NCBI GenBank assembly: GCA_017305455.1
Contig: JAFKKO010000117.1
Coordinates: 21,824 to 85,823, forward strand
Direction: 5' to 3'
DNA: 64,000 nucleotides
Source: Hyphomicrobiales bacterium
GTDB taxonomy: Bacteria; Pseudomonadota; Alphaproteobacteria; Rhizobiales; Xanthobacteraceae
Shown here: piece by piece, positions 4,267 through 22,727 of the stretch
How the letters are laid out: each line of letters opens with the position of its first letter
How positions within the stretch are numbered: position 1 is the stretch's first letter
Program-made: the position numbers and the translations under genes
Notes under the pieces: generated by a model
Told to the model about the DNA's origin: nothing
Databases searched by the model: none
The model's input: the letters and a program-made list of their open reading frames with translations, nothing else

Positions 4267-4331
4267 GTGCGATCGCCTTGCCGGGGACTGCCGTCATGCC
4301 TATCTGACGGAAAACCCCGCGAGGCCGTCTC

Positions 4332-6190: not shown

Positions 6191-6540
6191 CTGCGCCTCG
6201 CCGATGGCGCGATGTTCGTTCGCGCTTACTGCGTTTTTGATGACCTCGAGCACGTTCCTGATCCCATCACGTCGCGCGCAGCAAAAACTGCCTCGCAGCG
6301 AGCGTCGATGGCCGGAACCTATCGGGAAGATTTCAAAAATTGCTTGGAGTTTGTCTGCAAATCCGCAAGGCCAGGTTAGATAATGCTTAACCATATCGGC
6401 CGGCTCGCGAAGCCGTGCCGCATGGTCGTTTGCGGATCGGCTTTGGGCCCCGAGCGGCGCTGTTCCGACGGTGTTGCCGCTTGGAGCAGGCGGTTCGCTT
6501 TTGCTATAAATCGGGCGCATCCGAACGGGAGTTAGGCGGA

Positions 6541-6822
6541 ATGAGCGGAAGAATCTTGCGATTTGTCGGTCTGGCCGGCACGGCGGCGCTGTTGGCGTTC
6601 GCGAGCGCGCCGGTGCAGGCGCAGTTCACTCCAGGGTTTCAGCTGGGCGGCGACAAGGAAGTGTCTCCGGAGGAACGGGAGCGCAACCAGGCCAACGAAC
6701 GGGCCGCCAGAGAAGCGCAGAAGAAGATCGTTGCGCCCAAGGCCAGCAATGATCCGTGGGCGGATGTGCGCACCAGCGAGCCCCCGGCCAAGAGCGCCAA
6801 GCCCAAGGCCGTCGCGCGCTGA
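6541..6822 (+). CDS. Small secreted protein, unknown function
   Basis: ATG 6541 has GGGAG 9 nt upstream. There is a clear signal peptide, MSGRILRFVGLAGTAALLAFASAPVQA|QF, followed by a charged Lys/Glu/Pro-rich mature part. I do not recognise a family. Confidence 0.55.
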   Translation: MSGRILRFVGLAGTAALLAFASAPVQAQFTPGFQLGGDKEVSPEERERNQANERAAREAQKKIVAPKASNDPWADVRTSEPPAKSAKPKAVAR

Positions 6823-6840
6823 TATCCCGGCCTGACGTTT

Positions 6841-6918
6841 GTCTCATGGGCTTGTCCCATGGATTTTTCTCATAGGCTTGTCTCATGGGCTTGTCTCGTG
6901 GACGTGCCTCATTTTGCG
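6841..6918. repeat. 13-bp tandem repeat, six units (consensus GTCTCATGGGCTT)
   Basis: The units read gtctcatgggctt / gtcccatggattt / ttctcataggctt / gtctcatgggctt / gtctcgtggacgt / gcctcattttgcg. Units 1 and 4 are identical. The period is not a multiple of 3, and the repeat is intergenic. Confidence 0.85.
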
Positions 6919-7025
6919 GCATGCGCGCCGCGGCGACCTTTGGAAGAGATCGGCGGGGACGGGTGTGTGCTGGCGCTCGATCGAAGGGCGGGTGTTTGGA
7001 CCATGCGCCGGGATTGGAGAATCTG

Positions 7026-7343: not shown

Positions 7344-7512
7344 AAGTCGGCCTGGCAGGGCTGCGGCGGCTCTCACCGCTACCGGCGATATGAGGAATTT
7401 ATCGATCGGTCTTCATGGATCGTTCAGGACGTTCCTTGGCATCGCGTTAGTCTTCGCGCGATAGGTTATCGTGATGAACCGGCTTGGCGGTTCATGAATT
7501 TCGGAGGCCCAC

Positions 7513-7677
7513 TTGAAGCAGTCCGTCCTGCGCTTTCTGGCCAATCAGTCCGGCGCGACCGCGATCGAATACGGGCTGATCATGGGAGGTATCGCCCTGG
7601 CCATTCTGGCTGCTATTCAGGGAGTGGGCAGCTCCATCAGTTCGGTGTTCGGAAGAGCCTCCAACGCCCTGCAATAA
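7513..7677 (+). CDS. flp: Flp/Fap-family type IVb pilin (54 aa; absent from the ORF track because it is under 60 aa)
   Basis: TTG start at 7513 with GGAGG at 7503-7507. The translation MKQSVLRFLANQSGATAIEYGLIMGGIALAILAAIQGVGSSISSVFGRASNALQ contains the Flp prepilin motif G/ATAIEYGLI followed by a hydrophobic stretch. The stop is TAA at 7675-7677. Confidence 0.85.
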   Translation: MKQSVLRFLANQSGATAIEYGLIMGGIALAILAAIQGVGSSISSVFGRASNALQ

Positions 7678-7908
7678 CGCGCTCGCCGCGTGACCCGTGC
7701 GATGCGGGTCTGTCTTCTGCTTTGAAAGATCCGGCTTGTCCCGCTGCGTATTGACGCGGTGGCTGCGACGTCGGGCTGCGTGATGCAGGCCGAAACACGC
7801 TGCAATGATGTCTGCGGCGCAATTCCCGCGCCCCGCATGTCGCGGGCACGCCTGCGAAACTCGTCCGAACACCTTACAAAGTAAATGTTTACTTCTTAAC
7901 GTGGCACG

Positions 7909-8832
7909 CTAAGTCTTCGGCGGCTTGCGACCGAGGAACAGCTCAAGAAACACGCCTCTCAACCACCTGTTGGCGGGGTCGTAATGATAGCGCTCGTGCC
8001 AATGCTGCTTGATGTCGACCGTTGGGAGCTTGAGCGGCGGCTTGAGCAGTTTGATATTGGTGGAGTTGGCAAAAGACAGCGCGAGATTGCGCGGTACGGT
8101 TCCGATCGTGTCGGTCTGGGAGATCACCACTGGCAAGGTCAGGAAGTGAGGGACCGTCATGGCGACAGGACGCTTGATGCGCTGCTTGGCGATGGTCCGT
8201 TCGATCCCGACCTCGTGCGCCGTGCCGCTGGACGACACCAGCACATGCGGCAGGGTAGAGAACTGCTGGAGGGACAGCGTGTCATTCACCGTGGGATGGT
8301 CGGAGTTCGCGATGCAGACGAACTCGTCGCGGTACAGAAGCTGTTCGAAGAATCCGCCGGACAAACCCTCGAACAGGCCGACGGCCAGATCGACGTCGCC
8401 GGAAATCATCGCTTCCTGAATGCCGCGACGTGGGATCGACTCGATGTTGATGCCGACGCCCGGCGCGATGGCTTGCAGATGGCGCAGCAAGCGCGGCAGC
8501 ATCACGGCTTCGCCGATATCCGTCATGAAGACGGAGAAGGTACGGGATGAGCGCGCGGCATCGAAACTTGCATCGATCTTCAGCGCGCCGTCGATCAGCT
8601 CGCAGGCTTTGCGGATTGGCTCGGCGATCGATGCGGCATAAGGCGTCGGCTCCATGCCGCGCACGGTGCGCACGAACAACGGGTCGTTCAGAATCTTGCG
8701 CAGCCGCGCCAGCGCGTTGCTCAACGCGGGCTGACTCAACCCGACGCGATCGGCGGCGAGCGTGATGTTACGCTCACGATCGATCGCGACGAACGCCACA
8801 AGCAGATTGAGGTCGAGCGAATTTATATTCAT
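7909..8832 (-). CDS. LysR-family transcriptional regulator
   Basis: It has an N-terminal wHTH (LVAFVAIDRERNITLAADRVGLSQPALSNALARLR) plus a LysR substrate-binding domain. It is divergent from fdrA. Confidence 0.9.
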   Translation of the reverse strand: MNINSLDLNLLVAFVAIDRERNITLAADRVGLSQPALSNALARLRKILNDPLFVRTVRGMEPTPYAASIAEPIRKACELIDGALKIDASFDAARSSRTFSVFMTDIGEAVMLPRLLRHLQAIAPGVGINIESIPRRGIQEAMISGDVDLAVGLFEGLSGGFFEQLLYRDEFVCIANSDHPTVNDTLSLQQFSTLPHVLVSSSGTAHEVGIERTIAKQRIKRPVAMTVPHFLTLPVVISQTDTIGTVPRNLALSFANSTNIKLLKPPLKLPTVDIKQHWHERYHYDPANRWLRGVFLELFLGRKPPKT

Positions 8833-9032
8833 GCGACGAATACGCTACATGGAGAAATGACATTAGACAACATGGCGACCTCATTCTCTAATCAACGAGG
8901 GTACGGCATTGCAATGACATCGCGTGGATTGCGAAACAACGCGATCTGATCGCGCGAGCATAATGCCTTGACGACGGCGATTTCGATTCACCGCCGTGAT
9001 GTCGTGCGCGACTTTCTCATATGGGGTGAGCG

Positions 9033-10631
9033 ATGAAAGTTAAGTGCAGCATCAAGGCCAATGTCTATAAAGACTCCGTTTCATTGATGAGGATTTCGCA
9101 GCTTGTCGTCTCGCGGACGTCCGTGCAGCGCACAACGCTGTTGATGGGAACCAAGGCGAACAAGGAGTTTTTGGCGCAAGCCAAACTCATGCGGCCGGAA
9201 TTGGATGCGGCACAGCCAAGCGACATCATGATCGTCGTGGAGGACGGTTCGGATGAGACGATGGCTGCGGCCGAGCGTGAAATTCATTCGTTGATCGCGG
9301 GCGAGGAGCCCAAAGCGGGTTCATCCGAACAGGCTGCCGAATTGCCGCCGCGTTCGATCGCGGTCGGCGTCTCGCGCGCCGAAGAGGCCGATCTGGCGCT
9401 GATCTCGGTGCCGGGCTCGTATGCGGCGGCTGAAGCGATGAAGGCGTTGCGGCAGGGGCTTAGTGTGCTTTTGTTCAGCGACAACGTGCCGATCGAGCAG
9501 GAGCGCGAGCTCAAGAAGGTCGCGCAGCGCAAGAATCTTCTTGTCATGGGACCGGACTGCGGAACGGCGGTGATCAACGGCGTGCCGCTCGGTTTCGCCA
9601 ATGTTGTGCGGCGTGGCGGCGTCGGCCTGGTCGGCGCTTCCGGCACCGGCCTGCAGGAGATCATGTGTCAGGTTCATCGCCTCGGCGAGGGACTGTCCCA
9701 TGCCATCGGCACCGGCAGCCGCGATGTGTATGACGACATCGGTGGCGCAACAATGTTGCAGGGACTCGACCTGCTGGCCGCGGACAAGGCCACCAAAGTG
9801 ATCGCAATCATCTCCAAGCCGCCCGCGCCAGCCGTGCAGCAGCGCGTGCTGGCCAAGGCCGCGTCGCTGCAAAAGCCAGTGGTGGTCTGTTTCCTTGGCG
9901 GAAGTCCGGCCGCGCCCGGCGATAACGTCCACTGCGTTGCGACATTGCAGGAGGCGGCCGCCAAGGCGGTCGCGCTCGCGAAGGGCACGAAGGCGGCCGG
10001 CGAGGTCTCGCATGGCGGCGCGGCGGTCGATGCGATCGCCGCCAGGTTGAAGCTGTCGCAGCGATTCATCCGTGGACTTTATTCTGGCGGCACGTTCTGC
10101 GCGGAGGCGCAGGTGATCTGGCAGCGCCATGGGATCAGCACCCATTCCAATGTTCCGCTTGATTACGACCTCAAGCTCAAGGACGAGAACAAAAGCGTCG
10201 GGCACACCGCGATCGACCTCGGCAGCGACGAGTTCACGGTCGGCCGGCCACATCCGATGATCGACTACGGCGTGCGTATCGATCGGCTGCAGCGCGAGGC
10301 CAAGGACCCCGACGTCGCCTGCATCGTGCTCGATGTCGTGCTCGGCTATGGCAGTCACGAGAATCCAGTGAGCGTGCTCGCGCCGGCCATTCGTACGGCC
10401 AAGGCCACTGCCAAACAGGGCGGCCGCGAACTGCCGGTTGTCTGCTTTATCTGCGGCACCGACGAGGACCCGCAGCATCTGGCTTCGCAGACCGAGGCTC
10501 TCGCCAGGGAAGGCGTGATCTTCGCCTCGGCAAGCACGGAGGCTGCGAGCATCGCAGCGGATCTCGCCACGCGGATGGCCTCGGGCGATGCTGCTTCGGA
10601 TCGTCGTGCGCAACAGGGTAAGGGCCGGTAA
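9033..10631 (+). CDS. fdrA: FdrA-family protein (succinyl-CoA-synthetase-alpha-like acyl-CoA synthetase fold)
   Basis: The N-terminal KANVYKDSVSLMRIS is typical of FdrA. CoA-ligase-like motifs are ISVPGSYAAAEA, GPDCGTAVINGVPLGFAN and VGASGTGLQE. A GGGGTGAG SD precedes ATG 9033. Confidence 0.85.
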   Translation: MKVKCSIKANVYKDSVSLMRISQLVVSRTSVQRTTLLMGTKANKEFLAQAKLMRPELDAAQPSDIMIVVEDGSDETMAAAEREIHSLIAGEEPKAGSSEQAAELPPRSIAVGVSRAEEADLALISVPGSYAAAEAMKALRQGLSVLLFSDNVPIEQERELKKVAQRKNLLVMGPDCGTAVINGVPLGFANVVRRGGVGLVGASGTGLQEIMCQVHRLGEGLSHAIGTGSRDVYDDIGGATMLQGLDLLAADKATKVIAIISKPPAPAVQQRVLAKAASLQKPVVVCFLGGSPAAPGDNVHCVATLQEAAAKAVALAKGTKAAGEVSHGGAAVDAIAARLKLSQRFIRGLYSGGTFCAEAQVIWQRHGISTHSNVPLDYDLKLKDENKSVGHTAIDLGSDEFTVGRPHPMIDYGVRIDRLQREAKDPDVACIVLDVVLGYGSHENPVSVLAPAIRTAKATAKQGGRELPVVCFICGTDEDPQHLASQTEALAREGVIFASASTEAASIAADLATRMASGDAASDRRAQQGKGR

Positions 10632-12079
10632 TGACCATGGCGTATTCATTTCTCGACCGTAAAACCTCCGTCATCAGCCTCGGCGCGTCCGATCTCGACA
10701 AGGGCATCGAAAGCGCCAAGGCTCCCCTGGTGCGGTTGCAATGGCAGCCGGTGGGCGACGGCAATCCGGATGTGGCCTGGAGTCTTGCGCAGATCGTCGG
10801 CGACAAGGACGATCCCGAGGCCTTCGGCTCGCTGGTCGATCGCGCCAACGAGGAAGCGCTGCAGCGCATCCTCACCGCGCAGCCGGTCTGGGTGGACGTG
10901 GTTCTCCACGCTTCCGAGGTGTGGCCGGATATGGGGCGCACGCTGCTGCATGCCGGCCCGCCGATCGCCTGGGACGACATGTGTGGCCCGATGCGCGGCG
11001 GCGTGATCGGCGCCATTCTCTACGAGAAATGGGCCGAGACGCAGGAGGAGGCGGAGAAGCTCGCCGGCAGCGGCGCCATCCGTTTTGCGCCGTGCCATGA
11101 GTTCGGCGCGGTGGGGCCGATGAGCGGCATCATCTCGCCGTCGATGCCGCTGTTCGCCGTGCAGAACAAGACAGGCGGCAATTTCGGTTATGCGCCGATG
11201 ATGGAATCGGGCGGCGCCAAGACCCTTCGCTTCGGCGCCTTCGCGCCCGAAGTGATCGCCGGCCTGAAGTGGATCGAGAACGTGCTGGCGCCAGCGCTCA
11301 AGACCGCGGTCGCCGGGATCGATGGCGGCCTGCCGCTGAAGCAGATCATGGGGCAGGCGCTGCACATGGGCGATGACGTTCACAACCGCAACACGGCGGC
11401 GACCTTGCTGCTGCTGCGCACGGTGGTGGACTCGCTGCTCGGCTCGAACACGCCGAAGGACATCGTTCAGGACGTGGTCAAGGTGGTCGGCGCGGACGAC
11501 ATGTTCTTCCTCAGCCTGTCGATGGCGGCGTGCAAATCCACCATGGATGCCGCCCACGGCGTGCCTCACAGCAGCATCGTGACCGCGATGGCCCGCAACG
11601 GCGTCAATGTCGGCATCCGGGTGAGCGGGCTTGGTGGCAGCTGGTTCGTCGGCAAGGCGGACGTGCCGCTCGGTCTGTTCCTGCCGGGCTTCAGCGAAGC
11701 GGATGCCAATCCGGATATCGGCGACAGCGCCATCACCGAAACCTCGGGGCTCGGCGCGTTCGCCATGGCGGCCGCTCCCGCGATGGTGCAGTTCGTCGGC
11801 GGCACGCCGCAGGACGCGCTGCGTTATTCGCGCGAGATGGCGTTCATCACGGTCGGACGCAATCCGGGCTTCACGCTGCCGGCGCTCGATTTTATCGGCG
11901 CGCCGGTCGGCATCGACGTGCGCAAGGTGGTCGACGAAGGCATGCGGCCGGTGATCAACACCGCGACCGCGCACAAGGAAGCCGGCAAGGGCATTATCGG
12001 CGCCGGCATCGTCAAGGCTCCGATGAAGTGCTTCACCGAAGCCGTGCAGGCGCTGGCCGCCGGCGCCGGGAAATCGTAA
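10631..12079 (+). CDS. DUF1116 (YlbE-like) protein
   Basis: The start overlaps the fdrA stop (taATG). TLLHAGPPIAWDDMCGPMRGGVIGA...FAPCHEFGAVGPMSGIISPSMP matches the DUF1116/YlbE pattern that normally partners FdrA. Confidence 0.8.
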   Translation: MTMAYSFLDRKTSVISLGASDLDKGIESAKAPLVRLQWQPVGDGNPDVAWSLAQIVGDKDDPEAFGSLVDRANEEALQRILTAQPVWVDVVLHASEVWPDMGRTLLHAGPPIAWDDMCGPMRGGVIGAILYEKWAETQEEAEKLAGSGAIRFAPCHEFGAVGPMSGIISPSMPLFAVQNKTGGNFGYAPMMESGGAKTLRFGAFAPEVIAGLKWIENVLAPALKTAVAGIDGGLPLKQIMGQALHMGDDVHNRNTAATLLLLRTVVDSLLGSNTPKDIVQDVVKVVGADDMFFLSLSMAACKSTMDAAHGVPHSSIVTAMARNGVNVGIRVSGLGGSWFVGKADVPLGLFLPGFSEADANPDIGDSAITETSGLGAFAMAAAPAMVQFVGGTPQDALRYSREMAFITVGRNPGFTLPALDFIGAPVGIDVRKVVDEGMRPVINTATAHKEAGKGIIGAGIVKAPMKCFTEAVQALAAGAGKS

Positions 12080-12105
12080 GCGCAACGACAGGTTGACGTA
12101 GATGG

Positions 12106-12134
12106 AAGGCGCCCTCTGGGGCGCCTTTTTGTTT
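12106..12134 (+). terminator. Intrinsic terminator after the fdrA-DUF1116 pair
   Basis: Hairpin aaggcgcc-ctct-ggggcgcctt followed by tttgttt, 27 nt after the stop codon. Confidence 0.75.
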
Positions 12135-12418
12135 GACGTGTCGTGTTGCCCAAGAGCAGTCCTGGCATGCCAGCGTTATGTCGGAATGATTTCGCCCGGA
12201 CAGTTTGTCGCGTGGCCGCGCTGCCCCTGTTTTTCACAGCGTTTTCAAAAACATTCACGATGTGAATTCAGTCTATACGGCTGCGTGCGTAGGCAATCCC
12301 AAAGGTTTGTTTTTAGATCGATGCGTGAGAGATGCGCCACAATCGGCACAAGCCGGAATGTCAACCGACGAACGAAGTTGGCTGTCGCAAATCACGGAAC
12401 GCAACAGGGGGACTTTTT

Positions 12419-13408
12419 ATGATTCAGAATCGTCGTCGTTTTGTACAGGCCGGCGTGTTGTCGGCCGCGTTGATTGCCGGAGCCGGTGCATTCACTTTCG
12501 CCAGCGCCGCGGATGACCCCATCAAGATCGGCATTCTCATTCCGGGTTCGAAGGCGGACCATGGCTGGATGGAATCGGGCTACAACGGCATGAAAGACGC
12601 CGAGAAGCGTCACGGCAAGAAGATCAAGGTGACCTATATCGAGAACGTGAAGTTCGCCGATATGGAGCAGGCGCTCGTGACGCTTGCGATGAAGAACAAT
12701 CTGGTGATCGGCGGCGCCGGTCAGACCCAGGCTTCGGTGCTCAAGGTCGCCAAGCGCTTTCCGAAAGTGAAGTTCTCGATCGTCGGCCCGACCGGCCAGC
12801 CGACCGAGAATGTCGCGCAGTACGACGTGCTGCAGGCCCAGATCGGTTACGTCGCCGGCGCGGTTGCTGCGATGATGTCGAAGAACGGCGCGGTCAGCTA
12901 TGTCGGCGGTCTTGAAATCCCGGCGATCGTGAACACCGGCAAGGAGTTCTGCAACGGCGCCAAGCACGTCAAGCCGGACGTCAAGTGCATCGAGAGCTAC
13001 ACCGGCGATTTCGATGACGTAGCGAAGGCGAAGGAAGCAACGCTGGCGGCGATCGCGCAGGGCGCGGACGTTCACTACAATATCCTCAATCTCGGCGTGC
13101 GTGGCATGGAGCAGGCGGCGCGCGAGAAGGGCACCAAGATGATTGGCAGCTACACCAATTATTGCGGCGAGAAGAACCCGCTCTACATCGCCTACACCAC
13201 CAGCGGCATCGGCTTCATGTACGAGTACGCGATTGACCAGATGGTCGCAGGCACCTGGCACCCCGAATACAAGCCGTTCGGTCTTGTGATGGGTCCGCGT
13301 TCGGCCGGCATTAATGTCTGCACCGGCGAAACTCCGGAAATCAAGGCGAAGATCAAGGAACTGCAGGACGATCTGTTGTCCGGCAAGATCAAGGTGCGGG
13401 TGGGCTGA
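12419..13408 (+). CDS. BMP-family (PnrA-like) ABC transporter substrate-binding protein
   Basis: ATG 12419 follows an AGGGGGA SD. There is an RR-containing signal, MIQNRRRFVQAGVLSAALIAGAGAFTFASA, then a BMP/basic-membrane-protein fold (IKIGILIPGSKADHGWMESGY...). Confidence 0.85.
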   Translation: MIQNRRRFVQAGVLSAALIAGAGAFTFASAADDPIKIGILIPGSKADHGWMESGYNGMKDAEKRHGKKIKVTYIENVKFADMEQALVTLAMKNNLVIGGAGQTQASVLKVAKRFPKVKFSIVGPTGQPTENVAQYDVLQAQIGYVAGAVAAMMSKNGAVSYVGGLEIPAIVNTGKEFCNGAKHVKPDVKCIESYTGDFDDVAKAKEATLAAIAQGADVHYNILNLGVRGMEQAAREKGTKMIGSYTNYCGEKNPLYIAYTTSGIGFMYEYAIDQMVAGTWHPEYKPFGLVMGPRSAGINVCTGETPEIKAKIKELQDDLLSGKIKVRVG

Positions 13409-13412
13409 TCAA

Positions 13413-14972
13413 ATGGCGCTTCTCGAGCTATCCGGCCTGACGAAAAGGTTTGGTTCGTTCACCGCTCTCGACCATGTGAGCCTCACGGTCGAGAGCGGGG
13501 AGGTCCACTGCCTTCTCGGTGAAAACGGCGCCGGCAAGTCGACTCTCTGCAATCTGATTTTCGGTGTGCACAAGCCGGATGCGGGCGTCATCTCCCTTGC
13601 GGGAGAGGCGTTCCACCCGGCCGGGCCGGCCGAGGCTCTCCACAACGGCATCGTGATGGTGCACCAGCATTTCAGCCTGGTGCCGAACATGACCGTGGCG
13701 GAGAATCTCATGCTGGGCCGTTCGGGTCCGAAGCTGGAGCCGCACATCGTGATCGATCGCATGGCGGAGCTTGCGGCCGAGTACGACCTGCGGATCGATC
13801 CGCACGTACGCATCGAGGATTTGTCGGTCGGAGAGCGCCAGCGCGTCGAGATCATCAAGTGTCTGCTTGGTGATCCTCGGCTGCTGGTTCTGGACGAGCC
13901 GACGGCTGTGCTGCAGCCGGACGAGATCGACGCATTGCTCGCGATCTGCCGCCAGTTGGTGGATCGCGGCAAGGCGGTGCTCCTCGTCACCCACAAGCTC
14001 GGCGAGATCAAGCGCATTGCCGATCGCACCACGGTCTTGCGTCAGGGCAAGGTCGTCGAGACGGTGAAGATGGAAGGGGCGGACATGCAGTCGCTGGTCC
14101 GCTCGATGGTCGGACGCGACGTGCGTTCGCCCGGATCGGTTCTTGCCGCCACGATCGGGATCGAGAACCAGAACGAGGCCGACAGCAAGGTCATTTCCAT
14201 GCTGTCGCAGGACCGCACTGTCGAGCCGGCGCTGCAATTGTCGCATCTGACCTATTGCGATGCGGACGGCGTCACCAGAATCGACGACATCAATCTCAAG
14301 GTGATGCCGGGCGAGATTGTCGGCATCGCCGGCGTCGAGGGCAACGGCCAGACCGAACTCGGGCTCATGCTCGCGGGGCTGCTGGAGCAGACCTCCGGTT
14401 CGATCGCGGCCGGTGGCAAGAATCTGGACGGCTGTTCGCCGGAGGAGATCACCGCGGCGGGCGTCGGCATCGTGCCGGAGGACCGCCATGCGGTGGCCTG
14501 CATCAAGGAGATGTCGGTTGAGGAAAACCTGTTCCTCGGTTCGATTTCGCAATTCACCCGGTTCGGTTTCGTCAACCGCCCGGCGATGCGTCTGGCGGCT
14601 CGCGAATTGATGCGGGAGTTCGACGTGCGCGCGAGCGGCCCGGAGATTCCGATGTCGGGATTGTCCGGCGGCAATCAGCAGAAGGCCGTTCTGGCCCGCG
14701 AGCTGACGCTCGATCCTCTGATCTTCCTGCTCGCGGCGCAGCCGACGCGCGGCCTTGATGTCGGTGCCATCGAGGCCGTCTACAGCCGTATCCGCGCGGC
14801 GAGCGAGAGCGGGCTGGGCGTACTCCTGATTTCCAGCGAGCTTGAAGAACTGATCGCTGTGTCGGATCGCATCGCCGTCATTTACCGCGGCAAGCTCGTC
14901 GGCGAGCTGGCGTCGGATTCATTCAGCCGAGAGTCAATTGGGGCGATGATGTCGGGACATGAGCATGTCTAA
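13413..14972 (+). CDS. ABC transporter ATP-binding protein with two fused ATPase domains
   Basis: It has two Walker A motifs (GENGAGKST, GVEGNGQTE) and two ABC signatures (LSVGERQRV, LSGGNQQKA). The architecture is typical of BMP/CUT2-type importers. ATG 13413 lies 5 nt after the SBP stop. Confidence 0.9.
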   Translation: MALLELSGLTKRFGSFTALDHVSLTVESGEVHCLLGENGAGKSTLCNLIFGVHKPDAGVISLAGEAFHPAGPAEALHNGIVMVHQHFSLVPNMTVAENLMLGRSGPKLEPHIVIDRMAELAAEYDLRIDPHVRIEDLSVGERQRVEIIKCLLGDPRLLVLDEPTAVLQPDEIDALLAICRQLVDRGKAVLLVTHKLGEIKRIADRTTVLRQGKVVETVKMEGADMQSLVRSMVGRDVRSPGSVLAATIGIENQNEADSKVISMLSQDRTVEPALQLSHLTYCDADGVTRIDDINLKVMPGEIVGIAGVEGNGQTELGLMLAGLLEQTSGSIAAGGKNLDGCSPEEITAAGVGIVPEDRHAVACIKEMSVEENLFLGSISQFTRFGFVNRPAMRLAARELMREFDVRASGPEIPMSGLSGGNQQKAVLARELTLDPLIFLLAAQPTRGLDVGAIEAVYSRIRAASESGLGVLLISSELEELIAVSDRIAVIYRGKLVGELASDSFSRESIGAMMSGHEHV

Positions 14973-16071
14973 GTCGGAATTTGCAGTGAAGTCCTCCAGC
15001 CTGAGCTGGCCGGATGGATTGAAGGGGGTGATCCCGTTGCAGGTCGTCGTTCCGGTTGTCGCCACCATCGGCGCGCTGCTGGTCGGCCTGTTGATCATCG
15101 CCATCACCGGCGGCTCGGTTTCGGAAGCGATCGAGGCGTTCTGGGACGGCATGGCGGGCAGCAGCTTCAACATCGGCTCCTCGCTCAACCGCGCCATCAG
15201 CCTCGGCCTGGTCGGCCTCGGCTTTATCTTCGCGAACCGGGCCAATCTCACCAACGTCGGCGGTGAAGGCCAGATCGCCATCGGCGGCATGTTCGCCACC
15301 GCCATGGCGCTGCACGGGGCAGGGTCCCTGCCGTTCGGTCTCGCCTTTATCGTCCCGCTGTTCGTCGGCGCGCTCGCCGGCGGCTGCTGGGGCGCGCTCG
15401 CGGGCGTGCTGAAAGCCAAGCGCAACACCAACGAAGTCATCAGCACGCTGCTGCTCTCCTTCATCGCGCTGCCTCTGGTGTACTGGTCGGTGGAGTCGTT
15501 TCATCTGCTGCGCAAGCCGATCAGCGACGTCTCCTCGCTGCCTGAGTCGCCCGAGATTCCGGATGCGACCAAGCTGCCGCTGCTGTTTCCCTCGGATGGC
15601 TCCTCGCCGCTGCATATCGGATTGCCGCTGGCGATCGTCGCGGTGATCGTGGTCTGGTTCGTGCTGCGCCACACTTCGCTCGGCCTCAAGCTGCGCGCGG
15701 TCGGCCTCAACGAGATGGCCTCGCGCCGCGCCGGCCTGCGGGCAAGCTGGCTGATCATTCTCGCCATGGGCGTTTCCGGCGCGCTTGGCGGCCTCGGCGG
15801 CGCGATCATGATCCTTGGCCAGCAGTATTATCTGACCAGTGATTTCTCCTCCGGTTACGGCTTCGACGGGCTGGTCGTCGGCCTGCTGTCGCGCGGTTCG
15901 GCGGTGGGTGTGGTGATCGGCGCGCTGCTGTTCGGCTTCCTGCGCTCGGGCAGCATCAATATGGAAATCACCGCGCATGTTCCCTCTGCGGTGGTGCTGA
16001 TCTGCCAGGGTCTGATCGTTATCGCCATCGCCGGATCCGCTCTTCTCATGGATAGAAAGCCGAACTCATGA
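14959..16071 (+). CDS. ABC transporter permease (BMP/CUT2-type)
   Basis: 370-aa polytopic membrane protein. It overlaps the ATPase stop, which suggests translational coupling. It has BPD_transp_2-like hydrophobic repeats. Confidence 0.85.
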   Translation: MSMSKSEFAVKSSSLSWPDGLKGVIPLQVVVPVVATIGALLVGLLIIAITGGSVSEAIEAFWDGMAGSSFNIGSSLNRAISLGLVGLGFIFANRANLTNVGGEGQIAIGGMFATAMALHGAGSLPFGLAFIVPLFVGALAGGCWGALAGVLKAKRNTNEVISTLLLSFIALPLVYWSVESFHLLRKPISDVSSLPESPEIPDATKLPLLFPSDGSSPLHIGLPLAIVAVIVVWFVLRHTSLGLKLRAVGLNEMASRRAGLRASWLIILAMGVSGALGGLGGAIMILGQQYYLTSDFSSGYGFDGLVVGLLSRGSAVGVVIGALLFGFLRSGSINMEITAHVPSAVVLICQGLIVIAIAGSALLMDRKPNS

Positions 16072-16994
16072 TCGAGGAACAACTCGCAGTTTTCATCGGA
16101 TCGGGCCTGCGCCTCGCTGCGCCCCTGATCTTCGCCGGCGCCGGCGAGATGCTCAGTGAGCGGGCCGGCGTCCTCAACCTCAGCCTCGACGGCATGATGC
16201 TGACCTCCGCTTTCACCGCGGCGGCGGCGTCCTGGGCGACCGGATCGCCGATGGCCGGACTCGCGGCCGGTATTATCGCCGCGGTGTCGGTGGCCTATGT
16301 GCAGGCGATCCTGAGCGTGACGTTGCGCGCCAACCAGCTTGTGGTCGGCATCGGCTTCAACATTCTGGCGCTCGGCGCGACGACGTTTCTCTACCGGGAA
16401 ATTTTCGGGCCGCTGTCGCGCGACGCCATTCCGGGCTTCACCCAGCTCAACTGGTCGTGGCTCACTGCCATTCCGGTGATCGGCCCCGCGCTGTCGCACC
16501 AGACCTGGCTTGTCTATCTCGCTATCTTCATGATGGTGGTGACCTGGGCGCTGCTGAAATACACCTCGTTCGGCCTTGCGGTGCGCGCGGTCGGCGAAGA
16601 CCCGCGCTCGGCCGACAAGGCCGGAATCAATGTCGGCCGCACGCGCTATCTTGCCGTGCTTTATGCCGGCGCGCTGGCGGGGCTGGGCGGTGCTTTCCTG
16701 TCGATTGCCGACAGCAACACCTTCACCGAGAACATGACCAAGGGCGCGGGCTATCTTGCCATCACCGCGGTGATTTTCGGCGGCTGGACTCCATGGCGCA
16801 CACTCGGCGCGTGCCTGCTGTTCGGCTTCGCCACGGCGCTGCAATTCCTGGTGCCGGCCCTGCAGATCGACGTTCCGGTGGCCTGGCTGCTGCTGCTGCC
16901 GTATCTTCTGGCGCTGATCGCGATCGCCGGCTTCGTCGGCAAGAGCCGCCAGCCGGCGGCGCTGACCATACCGTTCGCGCGCGGGGCATCGTGA
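16068..16994 (+). CDS. ABC transporter permease (second subunit)
   Basis: 308-aa polytopic membrane protein. It shares a 4-nt ATGA overlap with the preceding permease gene. Confidence 0.85.
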   Translation: MIEEQLAVFIGSGLRLAAPLIFAGAGEMLSERAGVLNLSLDGMMLTSAFTAAAASWATGSPMAGLAAGIIAAVSVAYVQAILSVTLRANQLVVGIGFNILALGATTFLYREIFGPLSRDAIPGFTQLNWSWLTAIPVIGPALSHQTWLVYLAIFMMVVTWALLKYTSFGLAVRAVGEDPRSADKAGINVGRTRYLAVLYAGALAGLGGAFLSIADSNTFTENMTKGAGYLAITAVIFGGWTPWRTLGACLLFGFATALQFLVPALQIDVPVAWLLLLPYLLALIAIAGFVGKSRQPAALTIPFARGAS

Positions 16995-17041
16995 TGCCCG
17001 CGCGATTCTCACCATCACTAGTACATTGAAAGGGAAGGTCC

Positions 17042-17854
17042 ATGGCTACGAACGCTAAGGTTTCGGAAAAGGCGCAGCCGGCGCAGGACGAGGTGAGGCC
17101 TCTTGGCACCGGCGGCTACAAATGGCTGGTCAGCGACAACAACGTGAACATGGCGATGGAGCCGCCGCCGCCGCGCGCTGTCACCATCGACGCGCAACAT
17201 CAGTCGGTGACGATGGACCTCAACCGCACGGCGATCCTTGTCATCGACATGCAGAACGATTTCTGCACCAAGGACGGTTGGGTCGACCACCTCGGCTTCG
17301 ATTACGCACCGGACCGCGCGCCGATCGGGCCGCTGCAGAAATTGCTGCCCGGCCTGCGCGCGGCGGGCGTGCCGGTGATCTGGGTGAACTGGGGCAACCG
17401 GCCGGACCTGATAAACATGCCGCCGAACCAGATCCATCTCTACAAGCGGACCGGCGTCGGCATCGGTCTTGGCGAGCCGCTGCCGGTCGGCGGCCACAAG
17501 GTGCTGGAGAAGGATAGCTGGGCTGCCGCGGTGGTGGACGAACTGAAGCCGCTGCCCGAGGACATCTGCGTCGACAAGTACCGCATGAGCGGTTTCTGGG
17601 ATACGCCGCTCGACAGCATCCTGCGCAATCTCGACACCCGGACTATCCTGTTCGCCGGCGTGAACACCGACCAGTGCGTGCTGCACTCGCTGACCGACGC
17701 CAACTTCCTCGGCTATGGCTGCGTCATGGTGGAGGACTGCTGCGCCACCACCTCGCCGGACTACTGCACGGCGGCGACGCTGTTCAACGTCAAGAAGGGC
17801 TTCGGCTTCGTGACGAAGTCCGACGCCATCCTCCGGGCGCTGCCCCGGCCCTGA
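17042..17854 (+). CDS. Isochorismatase-family cysteine hydrolase (amidohydrolase)
   Basis: The Asp-Lys-Cys triad context is visible: AILVIDMQNDFC, VDKYRMSGF, AGVNTDQCVLHS. There is a ~60-aa N-terminal extension relative to minimal family members. Confidence 0.8.
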   Translation: MATNAKVSEKAQPAQDEVRPLGTGGYKWLVSDNNVNMAMEPPPPRAVTIDAQHQSVTMDLNRTAILVIDMQNDFCTKDGWVDHLGFDYAPDRAPIGPLQKLLPGLRAAGVPVIWVNWGNRPDLINMPPNQIHLYKRTGVGIGLGEPLPVGGHKVLEKDSWAAAVVDELKPLPEDICVDKYRMSGFWDTPLDSILRNLDTRTILFAGVNTDQCVLHSLTDANFLGYGCVMVEDCCATTSPDYCTAATLFNVKKGFGFVTKSDAILRALPRP

Positions 17855-18016
17855 GGTTTCCTGTTGCGCGCAGGTCCCTGGACCGGCCCGCGCGCAACGA
17901 CGCCGGCTTGTCGCCCGGGGGACACCCGCGGATTTACTCATCCGCGCCGGAGGCGACGAGCCGGCGTCACCTGGTTTTCAGGTGAGGGAAGTGCAGGTCG
18001 AGACGCTTGAGAACAT

Positions 18017-18046
18017 AAGGCCGCCCGCGAGGCGGCCTTTATTTTT
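18017..18046 (+). terminator. Intrinsic terminator closing the ABC/hydrolase operon
   Basis: Stem aaggccgcc/ggcggcctt with loop cgcga, followed by tattttt. The T-run is on the plus strand only. Confidence 0.7.
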
Positions 18047-18116
18047 CGACGACGGATATTCCGTGCTCCGTCAGGGCATCGAGCAAGTTTGCAAGATCGC
18101 GGTGAGGCCACCGAGC

Positions 18117-18785
18117 TCACCGTGTCGGTATCAGCTCCGGCATCAAGGCTTTCGTCCCATCGAGAAATGCCCGGACAGCATCGATGACGATTGCGTCCAA
18201 CTGCTTTGGCGTCGGGGTTTGATAGACGAAGCGACGGATGGCCATATAGAAAATGCGGCCATGTAATCCCCAGAACATCTCCACTTCGCGTTCTGACAGC
18301 GGCACTTCTTCTTTCGACGGCAGCTTCAGCTCGTGGCGCAATTCGGCGCAGGCGGGTTCGATGATCTCCCTGCGGACGATCGCGAGATAGCGTCCGGTGA
18401 TGTCGAAGGATTTCATGCCGGAAAAGACGAAGATCCGTACCCAGTTATATTCGAACACCTGTTCCACGTATTCGAGATAGAACTGAACGAGCCGCGCTTG
18501 CAGCGGCTGGCTTCGATCGCGGATCAGTCCGCTCCATGATGGCGACCAGCGGCTGAGATAGATTTCCTCATAGACCCGCTCGATGAGCGCTTCCTTGCTC
18601 GGGAAATGCCGATAGATCGCCGAATGCGTGATGCCCATGCGTTTGGCGAGCTCGCGTGTCTGACCCCCAAATCCCTGTTCGGCGAAAAACCGAACCGCTT
18701 CGTCGACAATAAAGCGTTCCCGATCAGCCGCCCGCATGTTGCGGCGCGGCAGTTTTTTGGCTGATTTTGCTGACTTTTTTGCCAT
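18117..18785 (-). CDS. TetR/AcrR-family transcriptional regulator
   Basis: The HTH is FFAEQGFGGQTRELAKRMGITHSAIYRHFPSKEALI. It is divergent from the molybdenum hydroxylase operon. Confidence 0.9.
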   Translation of the reverse strand: MAKKSAKSAKKLPRRNMRAADRERFIVDEAVRFFAEQGFGGQTRELAKRMGITHSAIYRHFPSKEALIERVYEEIYLSRWSPSWSGLIRDRSQPLQARLVQFYLEYVEQVFEYNWVRIFVFSGMKSFDITGRYLAIVRREIIEPACAELRHELKLPSKEEVPLSEREVEMFWGLHGRIFYMAIRRFVYQTPTPKQLDAIVIDAVRAFLDGTKALMPELIPTR

Positions 18786-18830
18786 CTGCGTTCAGTGCGT
18801 TGTGAGGACACCGGGATAACCCAATAACAA

Positions 18831-18852
18831 AAAGTGACCAAGTGGTCATTTT
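18831..18852. promoter_or_regulatory. Palindromic operator 1 (aaaGTGACCA-ag-TGGTCAtttt) in the tetR/hydroxylase intergenic region
   Basis: 22-bp inverted repeat with one mismatch and core TGACCAAGTGGTCA. A second copy of the same half-site lies 56 bp downstream. Confidence 0.6.
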
Positions 18853-18886
18853 CTGTTGACGGGCATGGCTGAGGCATGATCTAGAT

Positions 18887-18906
18887 TTGAGACCAGATGG
18901 TCACAA
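18887..18906. promoter_or_regulatory. Palindromic operator 2 (ttgaGACCA-ga-TGGTCacaa)
   Basis: 20-bp inverted repeat with the same GACCA-N2-TGGTC core as operator 1. It lies 34 nt upstream of the TTG start at 18940. Confidence 0.6.
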
Positions 18907-18939
18907 TTCTGGACCCATAAACGAACCGGGGGGTTTGTT

Positions 18940-19800
18940 TTGAAGGCCCGAGCATTTCGCTATGCGCGGCCCGCCACTGTCGCGGAGGCGCTTGAGATCT
19001 TCGCAAGTTCCGGCGAGGACGCGAGCTATATCGCAGGCGGCCAGAGTCTGGTGCCCGCGCTTGCCCTGCGCCTGCAGGCGCCCGACATCCTGATCGACAT
19101 CGCACATATCGAGTCGCTTCGCGGCGTCGAGCTGCAAGGGCAGTGGCTGCGGATCGGCGCGCTGACGCGGCACTGCGAGGCGATGACCGATCCCCTGATT
19201 GTTCGGCATGCGCCGTTGTTTTGCGAAGCCGCGCCTCATGTGGCGCATCCCGCGATCCGCAACAAGGGCACGATCGGCGGCAGCATCTCACATGCGGATC
19301 CGGCCTCCGAATTTCCGGCGGTGGCGCTGGCGATGGGTGCCGAGCTTGAAATCGCAAACCGCGACGGAACACGTCGTGTGCCCGCCGATGATTTCTTCAT
19401 CGATCTGTTTCAGACGGCGATCGAGCCCGGCGAATTGCTGGTCGCGATCCATGTTCCGGTGGTGCGCACCGGCCACCGCTGGGCGTTTCATGAATTCGCG
19501 CGGCGTCGTGGCGACTTCGCTCTCGTCGGCTCCGGCATTCTCGCCGAGTTCGGCAATGGCCTGATCGAGCAGATCCGCATCGTGTTCTTCGGGGTCGGCA
19601 GTACGCCGGTCCGCGCCCGACAGGCCGAGGACGCGCTGATCGGCCGCGCCTTGAATCGGGAGACCATCATGGCCGCGCAGGCGGGGGTCGGCGAGGGTTT
19701 GACGCCGCCGGAAGATGAGCACGTCCCGCCGGCCATGCGGGTTCACCTTGCCCGCGTTCTTCTGGGCCGTCTGCTTGGTCAGATCATGGAGCAGGCATGA
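18940..19800 (+). CDS. Molybdenum hydroxylase FAD-binding (CoxM-like, medium) subunit
   Basis: FAD-binding motifs YIAGGQSLVPAL and NKGTIGGSISHADPASE. The start is TTG, as listed. Confidence 0.9.
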   Translation: MKARAFRYARPATVAEALEIFASSGEDASYIAGGQSLVPALALRLQAPDILIDIAHIESLRGVELQGQWLRIGALTRHCEAMTDPLIVRHAPLFCEAAPHVAHPAIRNKGTIGGSISHADPASEFPAVALAMGAELEIANRDGTRRVPADDFFIDLFQTAIEPGELLVAIHVPVVRTGHRWAFHEFARRRGDFALVGSGILAEFGNGLIEQIRIVFFGVGSTPVRARQAEDALIGRALNRETIMAAQAGVGEGLTPPEDEHVPPAMRVHLARVLLGRLLGQIMEQA

Positions 19801-20309
19801 GCCAGTTCGTTAACATCAACCTGCAGGTCAATGGCGACAAGGTGTCGAGCAGCGTGGCGCCGCGCGACACGCTGGCCGATTTCCTGCGTCAGACGCTTCA
19901 ACTGACCGGCACGCATACCGGTTGCGAAATGGGCATCTGCGGCGCGTGTCTCGTCATGCTGGATGGCCGCGTGGTGCATTCGTGCCTGACGTTCGCGGTG
20001 CAGGCAGACGGAGCGGCCGTGGAGACCATCGAAGGGTTGAGCGAGCGCGGCGCTATTGCCGATCTCCAGCAAGCCTTTCATCAGCGCAATGCATTGCAAT
20101 GCGGCTTCTGCACGCCGGGCGTGCTGATGACAGCCCATAGCCTGCTGTCCCAACCGGGCGTGCCCTCGCGCGAGGACATTCGCGACGCGCTGTCCGGCAA
20201 TTACTGCCGCTGTACCGGATATGAAGCCATCGTCGATGCGATCGAGGGCGTCGCGCGCTGCCGCAACGGTGCGCCCGCTGATCGCGAGATCGAGGAGGTG
20301 AATCGATGA
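19797..20309 (+). CDS. Molybdenum hydroxylase [2Fe-2S] (CoxS-like, small) subunit
   Basis: Two cluster motifs are present: GCEMGICGAC...C and QCGFCTPG...CRCTGY. It shares a 4-nt overlap with the flanking genes. Confidence 0.92.
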   Translation: MSQFVNINLQVNGDKVSSSVAPRDTLADFLRQTLQLTGTHTGCEMGICGACLVMLDGRVVHSCLTFAVQADGAAVETIEGLSERGAIADLQQAFHQRNALQCGFCTPGVLMTAHSLLSQPGVPSREDIRDALSGNYCRCTGYEAIVDAIEGVARCRNGAPADREIEEVNR

Positions 20310-22681: not shown

Positions 22682-22727
22682 CAAGAAAAAACGACGTGAA
22701 AAATAAATCCATATGGAGGAGGAAACT

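Follow-up and report, generated by a model that had tools for sequence, protein, structure and literature searches.

A conserved, uncharacterised gene set probably for ureide import and breakdown in a Hyphomicrobiales bacterium, in a copy without three partner genes of its relatives

Two neighbouring operons in a 64-kb stretch of Hyphomicrobiales DNA (64,000 nucleotides, hereafter the window) raise the question of whether a regulator, an fdrA/DUF1116 pair, an ABC importer and a cysteine hydrolase belong together and, if so, what they process. The fdrA and DUF1116 products are now named AllF and AllG, which we take to be subunits of oxamate carbamoyltransferase. The eight-gene region is a real, conserved but uncharacterised gene set, probably for the import and breakdown of a small nitrogen-rich ureide, and the window copy lacks three partner genes that relatives carry. 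All eight genes were located where an initial annotation had placed them, with two start codons corrected (bmp and the ATPase gene). The features are as follows.

7909-8832, minus strand: LysR-family regulator, 307 aa (Pfam HTH_1 and LysR_substrate)
8828-8840, no strand: candidate LysR box 1, TTCATGCGACGAA, which differs from TTCAYNNNRTGAA by a single mismatch and lies on the border of the divergent spacer between lysR and allF
8940-8954, no strand: 15-bp palindrome CGCGATCTGATCGCG, present, probably not a conserved regulatory site
9033-10631, plus strand: AllF/FdrA-type subunit, 'a' paralogue clade, 532 aa (NCBIfam NF004760, 487.9 bits vs cutoff 433)
10631-12079, plus strand: AllG/DUF1116 subunit, 'a' clade, 482 aa (PF06545 'AllG', 279 bits vs cutoff 27)
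12106-12134, plus strand: intrinsic terminator after allG (dG -23.5 kcal/mol, z -3.6)
12254-12266, no strand: candidate LysR box 2, TTCACGATGTGAA, exact T-N11-A dyad preceding the bmp start codon by 153 nt
12419-13408, plus strand: BMP/PnrA-family periplasmic binding protein, 329 aa (PF02608; Tat-like signal)
13413-14972, plus strand: ABC ATPase with two nucleotide-binding domains, 519 aa (two ABC_tran stretches)
14959-16071, plus strand: ABC permease 1 (PF02653, BPD_transp_2)
16068-16994, plus strand: ABC permease 2 (PF02653, BPD_transp_2)
17042-17854, plus strand: isochorismatase-like cysteine hydrolase of a new subfamily, 270 aa (PF00857)
18017-18039, plus strand: strong terminator closing the operon, between the hydrolase gene and a convergent tetR (9-bp stem, 7 GC pairs, T-rich tail)

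Two subunits of the AllFGH system were recognised in the window, AllF by its score above the NF004760 cutoff and AllG through PF06545/DUF1116, with PDB matches to FdrA (3dmy, E 3e-79) and to 3clq (E 3e-118), respectively. The window AllG falls in a distinct clade of the tree. Both ORFs are intact, and a taATG overlap at 10629-10633 couples allG translationally to allF, as had been described. In E. coli, allFGHK (fdrA-ylbE-ylbF-ybcF) encodes oxamate carbamoyltransferase and a catabolic carbamate kinase (PMC11326118, PMC9843812), and activity needs all three of allF, allG and allH (PMC11326118). The window resembles this system in having adjacent, coupled genes (38% identity to E. coli AllF and 45% to AllG), and in other genomes AllH and carbamate kinase are likewise encoded in the orthologous clusters. 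It differs in that AllH and AllK are missing, its AllG has an N-terminal extension of ~65 aa and its relatives have two AllG paralogues. Moreover, an ABC importer and a cysteine hydrolase stand in place of allECD as partners, and LysR in place of AllS/ArcA as regulator.

No AllH (PF11392/DUF2877) was detected in the 64 kb by tblastn, for which E. coli AllH and three AllH proteins from the clusters served as queries, and neither carbamate kinase (AllK) nor a second AllG, AllG(b), is present there; these three absences hold for the 64-kb window. The initial annotation had also listed YlbF/DUF2877 and carbamate kinase as missing, which is true of all 64 kb. Its conclusion that the pair probably performs a reaction different from that in E. 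coli is not supported: every orthologous cluster with enough flank contains AllH, carbamate kinase and a second AllG beside the 'a' pair. Carbamate kinase adjoins AllG in nearly all AllG loci with enough flank (L007-L079), and the orthologous clusters often add a homologue of HpxW-like oxamate amidohydrolase; the best PDB match of these GGT-family neighbours was the HpxW oxamate amidohydrolase 5HFT (E 2e-101). The window is a reduced copy of these fuller clusters, whose gene combination points towards a step of the oxamate carbamoyltransferase type, with carbamoyl phosphate as its product.

We consider it unlikely that, without AllH and carbamate kinase, FdrA/DUF1116 carries out another reaction, such as CoA ligation or phosphoryl transfer with the acid product of the hydrolase as substrate. 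FdrA does possess succinyl-CoA-synthetase-alpha-like CoA_binding and Ligase_CoA domains, its NCBIfam family is still called 'acyl-CoA synthetase FdrA', the 'a' clade is a distinct paralogue, and the pair is kept under selection with no AllH or AllK adjacent. However, AllK, AllH and AllG(b) accompany the 'a' pair in every other lineage, the one family member that has been tested proved to be a carbamoyltransferase (PMC11326118), and no conserved CoA-dependent follow-up genes lie nearby. The earlier idea of FdrA as a CoA/phosphoryl-transfer enzyme acting on the hydrolase product gained no specific support.

The terminator first assigned to the pair was confirmed. It has a 9-bp stem, AAGGCGCCC/GGGCGCCTT, at 12106-12127 and a T-rich tail, and it is conserved in a 96%-identical relative (L168); a pattern scanner overlooked it because a G-T stem extension consumed the T-tail. 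As allG has its own terminator, each operon forms a transcript of its own in the window. From this terminator to the bmp start, the leader measures ~285 nt, in agreement with the length originally given.

The LysR-type regulator has both expected domains, a divergent target operon and candidate dyad boxes of the T-N11-A type. Orthologues of lysR (50-62% identity) belong to this cluster in Pandoraea terrae and in two MAGs, one from Hyphomicrobiaceae and one from Ferrovibrionaceae, and a LysR-family gene, assigned by Pfam only, occupies the equivalent place in L170 and Ramlibacter L165. In the window, L005 and L170, the 13-bp T-N11-A dyad TTCAYNNNRTGAA occurs both at the edge of the lysR/allF spacer and upstream of bmp. 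Box 1 overlaps the annotated lysR start codon and is one of only two matches with no more than one mismatch in 64 kb; exact matches lie at the equivalent place in L005 (8293-8305) and L170 (2510-2522). L168, L170, L005 and L081/L004 share the box 2 dyad, which in these loci precedes bmp by 140-190 nt. The motif is absent from clusters with a TetR or MarR regulator in place of LysR. A regex did not detect it ahead of bmp in L083, a Ferrovibrionaceae locus of the LysR type, and Ramlibacter L165 shows near-matches only. As the raw count in the window does not exceed chance (2 observed vs 3.6 expected), the operator argument rests on position and cross-locus conservation. A motif common to both operons suggests co-regulation, and the dyad is a better regulatory-site candidate than the 15-bp palindrome proposed initially. 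That palindrome exists, but the window contains 17 perfect 7-1-7 palindromes vs 7.3 in shuffles, and orthologous lysR spacers do not preserve CGCGATCTGATCGCG in palindromic form; by itself it is no more than chance, and it is probably not a conserved regulatory site.

Strong purifying selection acts on the pair (dN/dS 0.05-0.20 for allF and allG; 0.14-0.20 for allF), which argues that it is not a decaying remnant. Compared with L168, the values were 0.14 for allF and 0.05 for allG, and over its 3.3-kb contig L168 has the same layout as the window: allF-allG, a terminator-bearing spacer without carbamate kinase, then bmp. No gene remnants were seen in the spacer after the pair. We therefore doubt that allF/allG is a leftover, idle after losing AllK, AllG(b) and AllH and positioned there by history, with the importer and hydrolase as the sole working unit. 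Such an origin would agree with the partners missing from the window, with the pair's own terminator and the leader behind it, and with the fact that most hydrolase/ABC cores work without AllF/AllG; the intact, coupled ORFs, the low dN/dS against a relative of identical layout over the covered stretch, the empty spacer and the suggested co-regulation through a common operator motif speak against it.

The BMP-ABC genes and the hydrolase were present in all 11 genomes or contigs (11/11) bearing window-clade AllG (68-96% identity). Their linkage to AllF/AllG takes several gene orders, with rearrangements in Pandoraea and the Ferrovibrionaceae MAG, and holds across Alpha- and Betaproteobacteria despite them. 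In three further loci this hydrolase/ABC core is fused to a second, phylogenetically separate AllF/AllG clade (L104, L165 and L166, in the order hydrolase-AllH-AllF-AllG), which indicates independent recruitment. A chance juxtaposition of two unrelated operons would suit their separate transcripts in the window, but the linkage across two classes, the independent recruitment and the common operator motif all oppose it; already contradicted by the neighbourhood data, it is highly improbable. The initial annotation had made its module depend on co-conservation of the fdrA/DUF1116 pair with the ABC/hydrolase operon, and the neighbourhood comparison found the two co-conserved. Together with the apparent co-regulation, this supports its proposal that both operons form one conserved module, which would scavenge a small nitrogen compound.

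The importer is of the BMP/PnrA type, comprising a PF02608 protein, a fused double ATPase and two BPD_transp_2 permeases. The five-gene operon and the RR-type signal of its binding protein, now read as Tat-like (MIQNRRRFVQAG...ASA/AD), were upheld, but the bmp start moves from 12332 to ATG 12419, giving 329 aa as in all orthologues; the ATPase start was likewise corrected, to ATG 13413 (519 aa). Importer scores were below the cutoffs of the closest named NCBIfam set, 'putative B6 ABC transporter'. The closest solved structure to the binding protein is AtzT, the BMP protein of the atrazine plasmid (6pi5, E 9e-28), which provides a precedent for BMP proteins that bind planar N-heterocycles rather than nucleosides. 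The relationship is distant.

The Asp-Lys-Cys triad of the hydrolase (D69/K179/C212), noted earlier as intact, is invariant in 120 orthologues, as are the pocket residues W80, W117, R181, N208 and Q211. Its best PDB matches were BiuH 6azo (E 3e-40), RutB 8bkd, Herbaspirillum BiuH 6xjm and TrtA 6xix. The substrate-binding residues E84/K145/Q215 of BiuH correspond to E72/K132/Q202 of TrtA, and residue roles for comparison with BiuH, TrtA and RutB are available (PMC5806882, PMC7948467). In the window enzyme, BiuH/TrtA substrate residues are replaced (E84 by W117, K145 by M182, T171 by N208, V174 by Q211), the M182 position being occupied by Ile in the majority of orthologues, and no Gln clearly corresponds to Q215. 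RutB residues Y29, Y35, N72 and Y136 are also replaced, leaving only R181 (RutB R135) in common. Since the triad is kept but these substrate residues are replaced, the hydrolase represents a new subfamily and not a known enzyme, in keeping with the undescribed pathway that the initial annotation had supposed.

It is accordingly very improbable that the ABC/hydrolase operon is an ordinary biuret/triuret (BiuH/TrtA) or pyrimidine (RutB) system, even with these best PDB matches and with BMP-type importers accompanying trtA and biuH in nitrifier MAGs, alongside allFGHK in comammox (PMC12625717). Besides the replaced residues, the family scores are far from the cutoffs (NCBIfam BiuH NF050097, 151 bits vs 370; RutB TIGR03614, 147.7 bits vs 378), and neither rutA or other rut genes nor atzF lie near the hydrolase. 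In comammox Nitrospira and ammonia-oxidising archaea, trtA, biuH and atzF with bmpA-nupABC are collocated with allFGHK, which published work handles as a separate pathway neighbouring the triuret/biuret genes (PMC7948467, PMC12625717). We recovered Nitrospira loci L052, L058, L061, L062, L064 and L072, with a true BiuH in L058. Such clusters likewise bring together a BMP-type ABC importer, an isochorismatase-like cysteine hydrolase and AllF/AllG, but the window hydrolase shares 30-39% identity with their enzymes and lacks their substrate-binding residues, transporter components share 25-38%, and the window has no atzF or trtB.

The real core is the hydrolase with its transporter, and the third partner varies. 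When sampled from the hydrolase side, 18 of 27 long metagenome loci had an amidase-signature amidase of ~400 aa as partner, and AllF/AllG was rare (1/27). Of 36 long loci that contain a hydrolase orthologue, 18 had the PRK08310 amidase and 10 had AllF/AllG, never both together (0/36; Fisher p 3e-4, on sampled loci that are not independent). The amidase belongs to NCBIfam PRK08310, outside the AtzE/HpxY family (216 bits vs cutoff 461), and its common version of the module occurs in Rhizobium leguminosarum pRL9b4 and Variovorax paradoxus VAI-C. Known oxalurate routes use the HpxY amidase in Klebsiella and AllFGH with AllK in E. coli (PMC11326118; PMC12625717), and the alternation mirrors these hydrolytic and phosphorolytic routes. 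The oxalurate branch of Klebsiella HPX, as cited in PMC12625717 (HpxW structure 5HFT), consists of the amidase-signature amidase HpxY and the oxamate amidohydrolase HpxW. In the common version of the module, an amidase-signature amidase and an HpxW-like gene of the GGT family similarly take the place of AllF/AllG, although the amidase is PRK08310 rather than AtzE/HpxY and a cysteine hydrolase and BMP importer are added. Neither the amidase nor an HpxW-like gene is present in the window.

On balance, we think it probable that the region is one LysR-controlled module for the uptake and breakdown of a small ureide or acylurea, namely oxalurate or a close precursor or analogue. The nitrogen-scavenging module of the original interpretation is retained in this proposal, but not its different FdrA/DUF1116 reaction or its palindrome site. 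The BMP-type importer would take up the compound, and the hydrolase would cleave a first amide or ureide bond, most likely yielding an N-carbamoyl (acylurea) acid. An AllF/AllG-containing oxamate-carbamoyltransferase-type enzyme would then split this acid with phosphate to give carbamoyl phosphate, which carbamate kinase would convert to ATP, NH3 and CO2; where present, the HpxW-like enzyme would deamidate the remaining oxamate-like amide. The hydrolase could instead act last, on that amide. As the window supplies only importer, hydrolase, regulator and AllF/AllG, we infer that AllH, AllG(b) and carbamate kinase are encoded elsewhere in the genome and act in trans, or that the pair works in reduced form. 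The computations establish the identities of the genes, their co-conservation, the alternation of partners, the purifying selection and the operator motif common to both operons, whereas the class of substrate and the sequence of steps, like the supply of missing subunits in trans, are inferred.

A broader reading, which we offer tentatively and rate as rather doubtful as a whole, including partner swap and substrate divergence, is that AllF/AllG(/AllH) are general phosphorolytic acylurea-cleaving carbamoyltransferases, beyond anaerobic allantoin fermentation. If so, aerobic soil bacteria would plug them in behind BiuH-like cysteine hydrolases and BMP importers, interchangeably with amidase-signature amidases, and would gain ATP from ureide nitrogen sources. 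Paralogous AllF/AllG sets would have diverged in substrate, for example oxalurate versus allophanate or carboxybiuret-type compounds. The window's pair, without AllH and AllK, would be a minimal two-subunit form or a specificity module borrowing both from another locus, and the hydrolase subfamily would define a new ureide/heterocycle entry reaction, such as the formation of oxalurate from parabanate or oxalurate amide.

ORF listing and profile searches confirmed the eight genes described in the initial annotation, with the coordinates and domains below.

7909-8832, minus strand: lysR, with HTH_1 and LysR_substrate domains
9033-10631, plus strand: fdrA/allF, NCBIfam FdrA (487.9 bits, cutoff 433)
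10631-12079, plus strand: DUF1116/allG, PF06545, currently named "Oxamate carbamoyltransferase subunit AllG" in Pfam
12419-13408, plus strand: BMP binding protein (bmp), PF02608
13413-14972, plus strand: ABC ATPase with two ABC_tran domains
14959-16071, plus strand: permease 1, PF02653
16068-16994, plus strand: permease 2, PF02653
17042-17854, plus strand: cysteine hydrolase, PF00857

The claimed taATG overlap between allF and allG was real, as was the terminator after allG (dG −23.5 kcal/mol, z −3.6), and the second operon is closed by a strong terminator at 18017-18039. Two starts were corrected: that of bmp to ATG 12419, giving a 329-aa protein with a Tat-like signal (MIQNRRRF...), and that of the ATPase to ATG 13413. 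In the 64 kb, tblastn with proteins from E. coli and related clusters gave no hit for AllH (DUF2877), for carbamate kinase, or for a protein of the GGT or amidase-signature families. The 160 nt between the hydrolase stop and the terminator (17855-18016) have a very strong predicted structure; with the terminator included, 17855-18050 folds into three long hairpins (MFE −110 kcal/mol, z −6.4), whose arms have no second copy in the window. Possible identities for this stretch are a structured 3′ UTR, an sRNA and a REP-like element.

The linkage between the two operons was surveyed from both sides. An AllG alignment was scanned against one genome per species, and the resulting 79 loci were searched by tblastn with the window proteins. 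BMP-type ABC importer genes and the hydrolase (54-83% identity) were present in every surveyed locus carrying an AllG of the window clade (68-80% identity), namely those of Bradyrhizobium altum, B. sp. C9, B. sp. Pha-3, Pandoraea terrae, a Hyphomicrobiaceae MAG and a Ferrovibrionaceae MAG; Pfam-annotated contigs supplied five additional window-clade cases. In Pandoraea the ABC/hydrolase genes are found upstream of lysR, and a GGT-family gene and lysR lie between the hydrolase and bmp in the Ferrovibrionaceae MAG. Because gene order varies in this way among lineages, the linkage of allF/allG to the hydrolase-importer core is not plain synteny.

Starting from the hydrolase as query, a metagenome scan yielded 80 loci (65-80% identity). 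Of the 27 that reached 12 kb or more, BMP-ABC genes adjoined the hydrolase in 24 and AllF/AllG in one (L104). Hydrolase orthologues were also looked up in three further cases, and AllF/AllG lay near the hydrolase in each. The order in L104, L166 and the Ramlibacter locus L165 was BMP-ABC, hydrolase, AllH, AllF, AllG. Their AllF/AllG belong to another clade than the window pair, indicating that two AllF/AllG lineages were recruited independently to the same core. These surveys supported the earlier idea of a single module in that allF/allG and the ABC/hydrolase operon are co-conserved, with an asymmetry between the AllG and hydrolase sides.

We then compared gene layouts, with (a) and (b) denoting paralogue clades of AllF and AllG; the window pair belongs to (a).

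L170 and L005 (homologous loci): LysR (minus strand), then AllF, AllG(a), AllK, AllG(b), BMP-ABC, hydrolase, AllH
Pandoraea: AllF, AllG(a), AllK, AllH, AllG(b)
Ferrovibrionaceae MAG: AllF, AllG(a), AllK, AllH, AllG(b), hydrolase, GGT
Bradyrhizobium: AllH, 61-aa ORF, AllG(b), AllF(b), AllK, AllF(a), AllG(a), BMP-ABC, hydrolase
Ramlibacter: BMP-ABC, hydrolase, AllH, AllF, AllG, then LysR (minus strand), then AllF, AllK, AllG, GGT

Orthologous clusters always encode one AllH, one carbamate kinase, two AllGs and one or two AllFs. Cultured carriers of the full AllF/G/H/K version are Pandoraea terrae LMG 30175, Bradyrhizobium altum Pear77 and Bradyrhizobium sp. Pha-3. The window layout is that of L170 and L005 minus AllK, AllG(b) and AllH, and is a reduced copy of these clusters. 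No pseudogene remnants of the three genes were found in its allG-bmp spacer (best E 0.04). A 96%-identical metagenomic relative (L168) has the same arrangement over its 3.3-kb contig, which ends before the hydrolase: allF, allG, a 358-bp spacer without carbamate kinase, and bmp, with the terminator as in the window. The dN/dS values of allF/allG were 0.18-0.20 against Bradyrhizobium, with the other five genes in the same range, and 0.14 (allF) and 0.05 (allG) against L168. This purifying selection indicates that the pair is functional, and the partners lacking in the window are probably encoded elsewhere. Bradyrhizobium AllG(b) is E. coli-like (416-418 aa) and is preceded by a separate ORF of 61-62 aa (L082 4398-4583, L169 4243-4431, L001 about 4285-4464). 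Long (~480 aa) AllGs, including that of the window, carry a homologue of this ORF as their N-terminal ~60 residues, indicating that the AllG N-terminal extension occurs as a split gene in some genomes.

AllFGH was identified as an oxamate carbamoyltransferase in 2024, in E. coli only, and is the sole tested member of its family (PMC11326118); AllK makes ATP after this step in E. coli (PMC9843812). A carbamate kinase gene adjoins nearly all of our AllG-selected loci. GGT-family genes in or beside several clusters had as best PDB match HpxW, the oxamate amidohydrolase of Klebsiella (5HFT; E 2e-101 and 5e-75 for the two chains). As read from the neighbouring genes, oxalurate would be converted to oxamate and carbamoyl phosphate, and on to oxalate. 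The initial annotation had favoured a different reaction for the FdrA/DUF1116 pair; this was not supported, as the carbamate kinase and HpxW-like neighbours fit the oxalurate route.

A second kind of partner emerged when ORFs were clustered from 36 long loci with hydrolase orthologues. The commonest neighbour after the transporter was a ~400-aa amidase-signature amidase (NCBIfam PRK08310, 439 bits, cutoff 391), which among named proteins is most closely related to AtzE-family enzymes, allophanate hydrolase and malonamidase E2. This amidase occurred in 18 loci and AllF/AllG in 10, with both in none (Fisher p 3e-4, with sampling that is not independent). Annotated replicons of two strains carry the full hydrolytic version.

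Rhizobium leguminosarum bv. trifolii 9B: one strand bmp, ATPase, two permeases, GGT; other strand cysteine hydrolase, amidase, TetR
Variovorax paradoxus VAI-C: one strand bmp, ATPase, two permeases; other strand cysteine hydrolase, amidase, TetR, GGT

According to a passage in PMC12625717 citing Huynh and Stewart 2023, oxalurate is broken down by HpxY and HpxW in Klebsiella and by AllFGH and AllK in E. coli. The swap of the amidase for AllFGH and AllK in the module is the same alternation. Where a cluster combines the cysteine hydrolase with both an amidase and an HpxW-like enzyme, a third step must fall to the hydrolase. Most simply, this would be the first cleavage of the imported compound, an order that we infer.

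The best PDB matches of the hydrolase were BiuH, RutB and TrtA, and its scores lay far under the curated BiuH and RutB cutoffs. The triad D69/K179/C212 was invariant across 120 orthologues. Biuret- and triuret-binding residues, with roles taken from PMC5806882 and PMC7948467, were swapped for other invariant ones (E84 to W117, T171 to N208, V174 to Q211, Y47 to W80), with K145 replaced by M or I at position 182; R181 is the counterpart of RutB R135. Profile scores and replacement of substrate residues ruled out BiuH, TrtA and RutB as identities. Judged by its sequence, the hydrolase represents a new subfamily. A small planar or anionic amide or ureide would fit its predicted aromatic pocket, which contains Arg, Asn and Gln, without the pocket fixing the substrate. 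The closest solved relative of the binding protein is AtzT, which binds hydroxyatrazine and guanine.

A more distant hydrolase homologue (57% identity) lies on a Pantoea sp. SOD02 plasmid (L173, 3052-13447) in a different LysR-controlled operon, which encodes BMP-ABC, a cupin, the cysteine hydrolase, a metal-dependent amidohydrolase and an OYE-type flavin reductase, with a creatininase-family gene alongside. As this locus shows, the hydrolase and importer pair is reused with other ring-opening enzymes.

Turning to regulation, we rejected the palindrome proposed earlier as an operator in the lysR/allF spacer; the window contains 17 such palindromes, and this one is unconserved. A 13-bp T-N11-A dyad, TTCAYNNNRTGAA, had two matches with at most one mismatch in the 64 kb (3.6 expected, i.e. 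not above chance): an exact one at 12254-12266, 153 nt upstream of bmp, and one with a single mismatch at 8828-8840, where the lysR/allF spacer borders lysR. The argument for this dyad is positional conservation, not match count in the window. L005 and L170 have exact copies at both corresponding positions, and Pandoraea and L168 have one upstream of bmp. Across the 170 fetched loci, eight of the 12 exact matches lie at these two positions, representing seven distinct places (L004 and L081 are the same contig stretch). TetR- or MarR-regulated clusters were without the dyad; among LysR-type loci, Ramlibacter L165 had near-matches only, and Ferrovibrionaceae L083 had no copy upstream of bmp. This pattern suggests that a single candidate LysR-type operator may serve both operons. 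A variant of the dyad with N4 spacing (8986-9001 included) performed no better than chance.

The Rfam scan of 7500-19000 for a leader riboswitch or other RNA element gave sub-threshold noise only (sraL-like terminator, E 0.14; IRES, E 0.61), neither leader had a sigma-54 promoter, and a sigma-70 consensus was not found. The bmp-proximal half of the 340-nt allG-bmp spacer (12240-12418, compared with L168 2800-2996) was well conserved even though dS of the flanking genes was about 0.5, and the terminator-proximal half was unconserved. This suggests that a constrained promoter or leader extends beyond the 13-bp dyad before bmp.

The genomic surroundings of the module are as follows.

18-1340: class I fumarate hydratase
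4332-4994: DsbA-like protein
5036-6520: 494-aa Acetyltransf_6 protein
18117-18785, minus strand: TetR gene, directly downstream of the module
18940-19800, 19797-20309 and 20306-22681: FAD, 2Fe-2S and MoCo subunits of a CoxMSL-type molybdenum hydroxylase, divergent from TetR
22713 to about 27318: Liv-type ABC importer, with Peripla_BP_6 (22713-23978) followed by two permeases and two ATPases
28138-29226: recA

The ordinary chromosomal genes among these neighbours (fumarate hydratase, DsbA-like protein, Acetyltransf_6 protein and recA) and the even GC content along the window indicate that the module is chromosomal, with no obvious island. The TetR at 18117-18785 was rejected as a module member; it is not homologous to the TetRs of amidase-type clusters and more likely serves the divergent Mo-hydroxylase operon. 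The region 18117-27318 could be a second module for N-heterocycle oxidation and uptake, and was not conserved beside the hydrolase in related genomes.

Only one paper emerged from our search for literature on this gene combination, or on gene clusters for using parabanate, oxalurate or oxamate: a 2025 MAG study that reports allFGHK beside biuH, trtA and bmpA-nupABC in nitrifiers, both comammox and archaeal, and treats them as neighbouring, separate pathways (PMC12625717). Our AllG survey recovered its Nitrospira loci and confirmed a true BiuH in one. In Serratia, Rahnella, Caballeronia and Burkholderia, TrtA-like hydrolases come before AllH-AllF-AllG-AllK. A BiuH-like hydrolase under the BiuH cutoff lies directly before AllH-AllF-AllG-AllK in L029, L044, L054-L056, L060, L068, L070 and L075 (positions about 6700-7000, upstream of AllF), which derive from Serratia, Rahnella, Buttiauxella, Caballeronia, Burkholderia and Cupriavidus. 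The TrtA-type motif GVTTEVCV is present in the copies read from Serratia and Caballeronia. These loci represent a second recurrent association of AllFGHK with a cysteine hydrolase.

The window module belongs with ureide catabolic clusters built on AllFGHK or BiuH/TrtA; it is not categorically new, and the association was partly noticed before. We found no description in the literature of the hydrolase subfamily, the amidase/AllFG partner swap or the AllH-less arrangement. With its core of an uncharacterised cysteine hydrolase and a BMP importer, this is a widespread soil module, represented in Rhizobium, Bradyrhizobium, Paraburkholderia, Variovorax, Pandoraea and many MAGs. Caution is warranted in annotating such hydrolases as RutB, BiuH or nicotinamidase. 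The interchange of the amidase with AllF/AllG (and AllH/AllK) yields a concrete, testable hypothesis on what substrates both enzymes use and on how aerobes might gain ATP from ureide nitrogen. With tractable strains and candidate operator sites named for experiments, the region is a solid and testable starting point for studying both the function of the AllFGH family and a new family of hydrolases.
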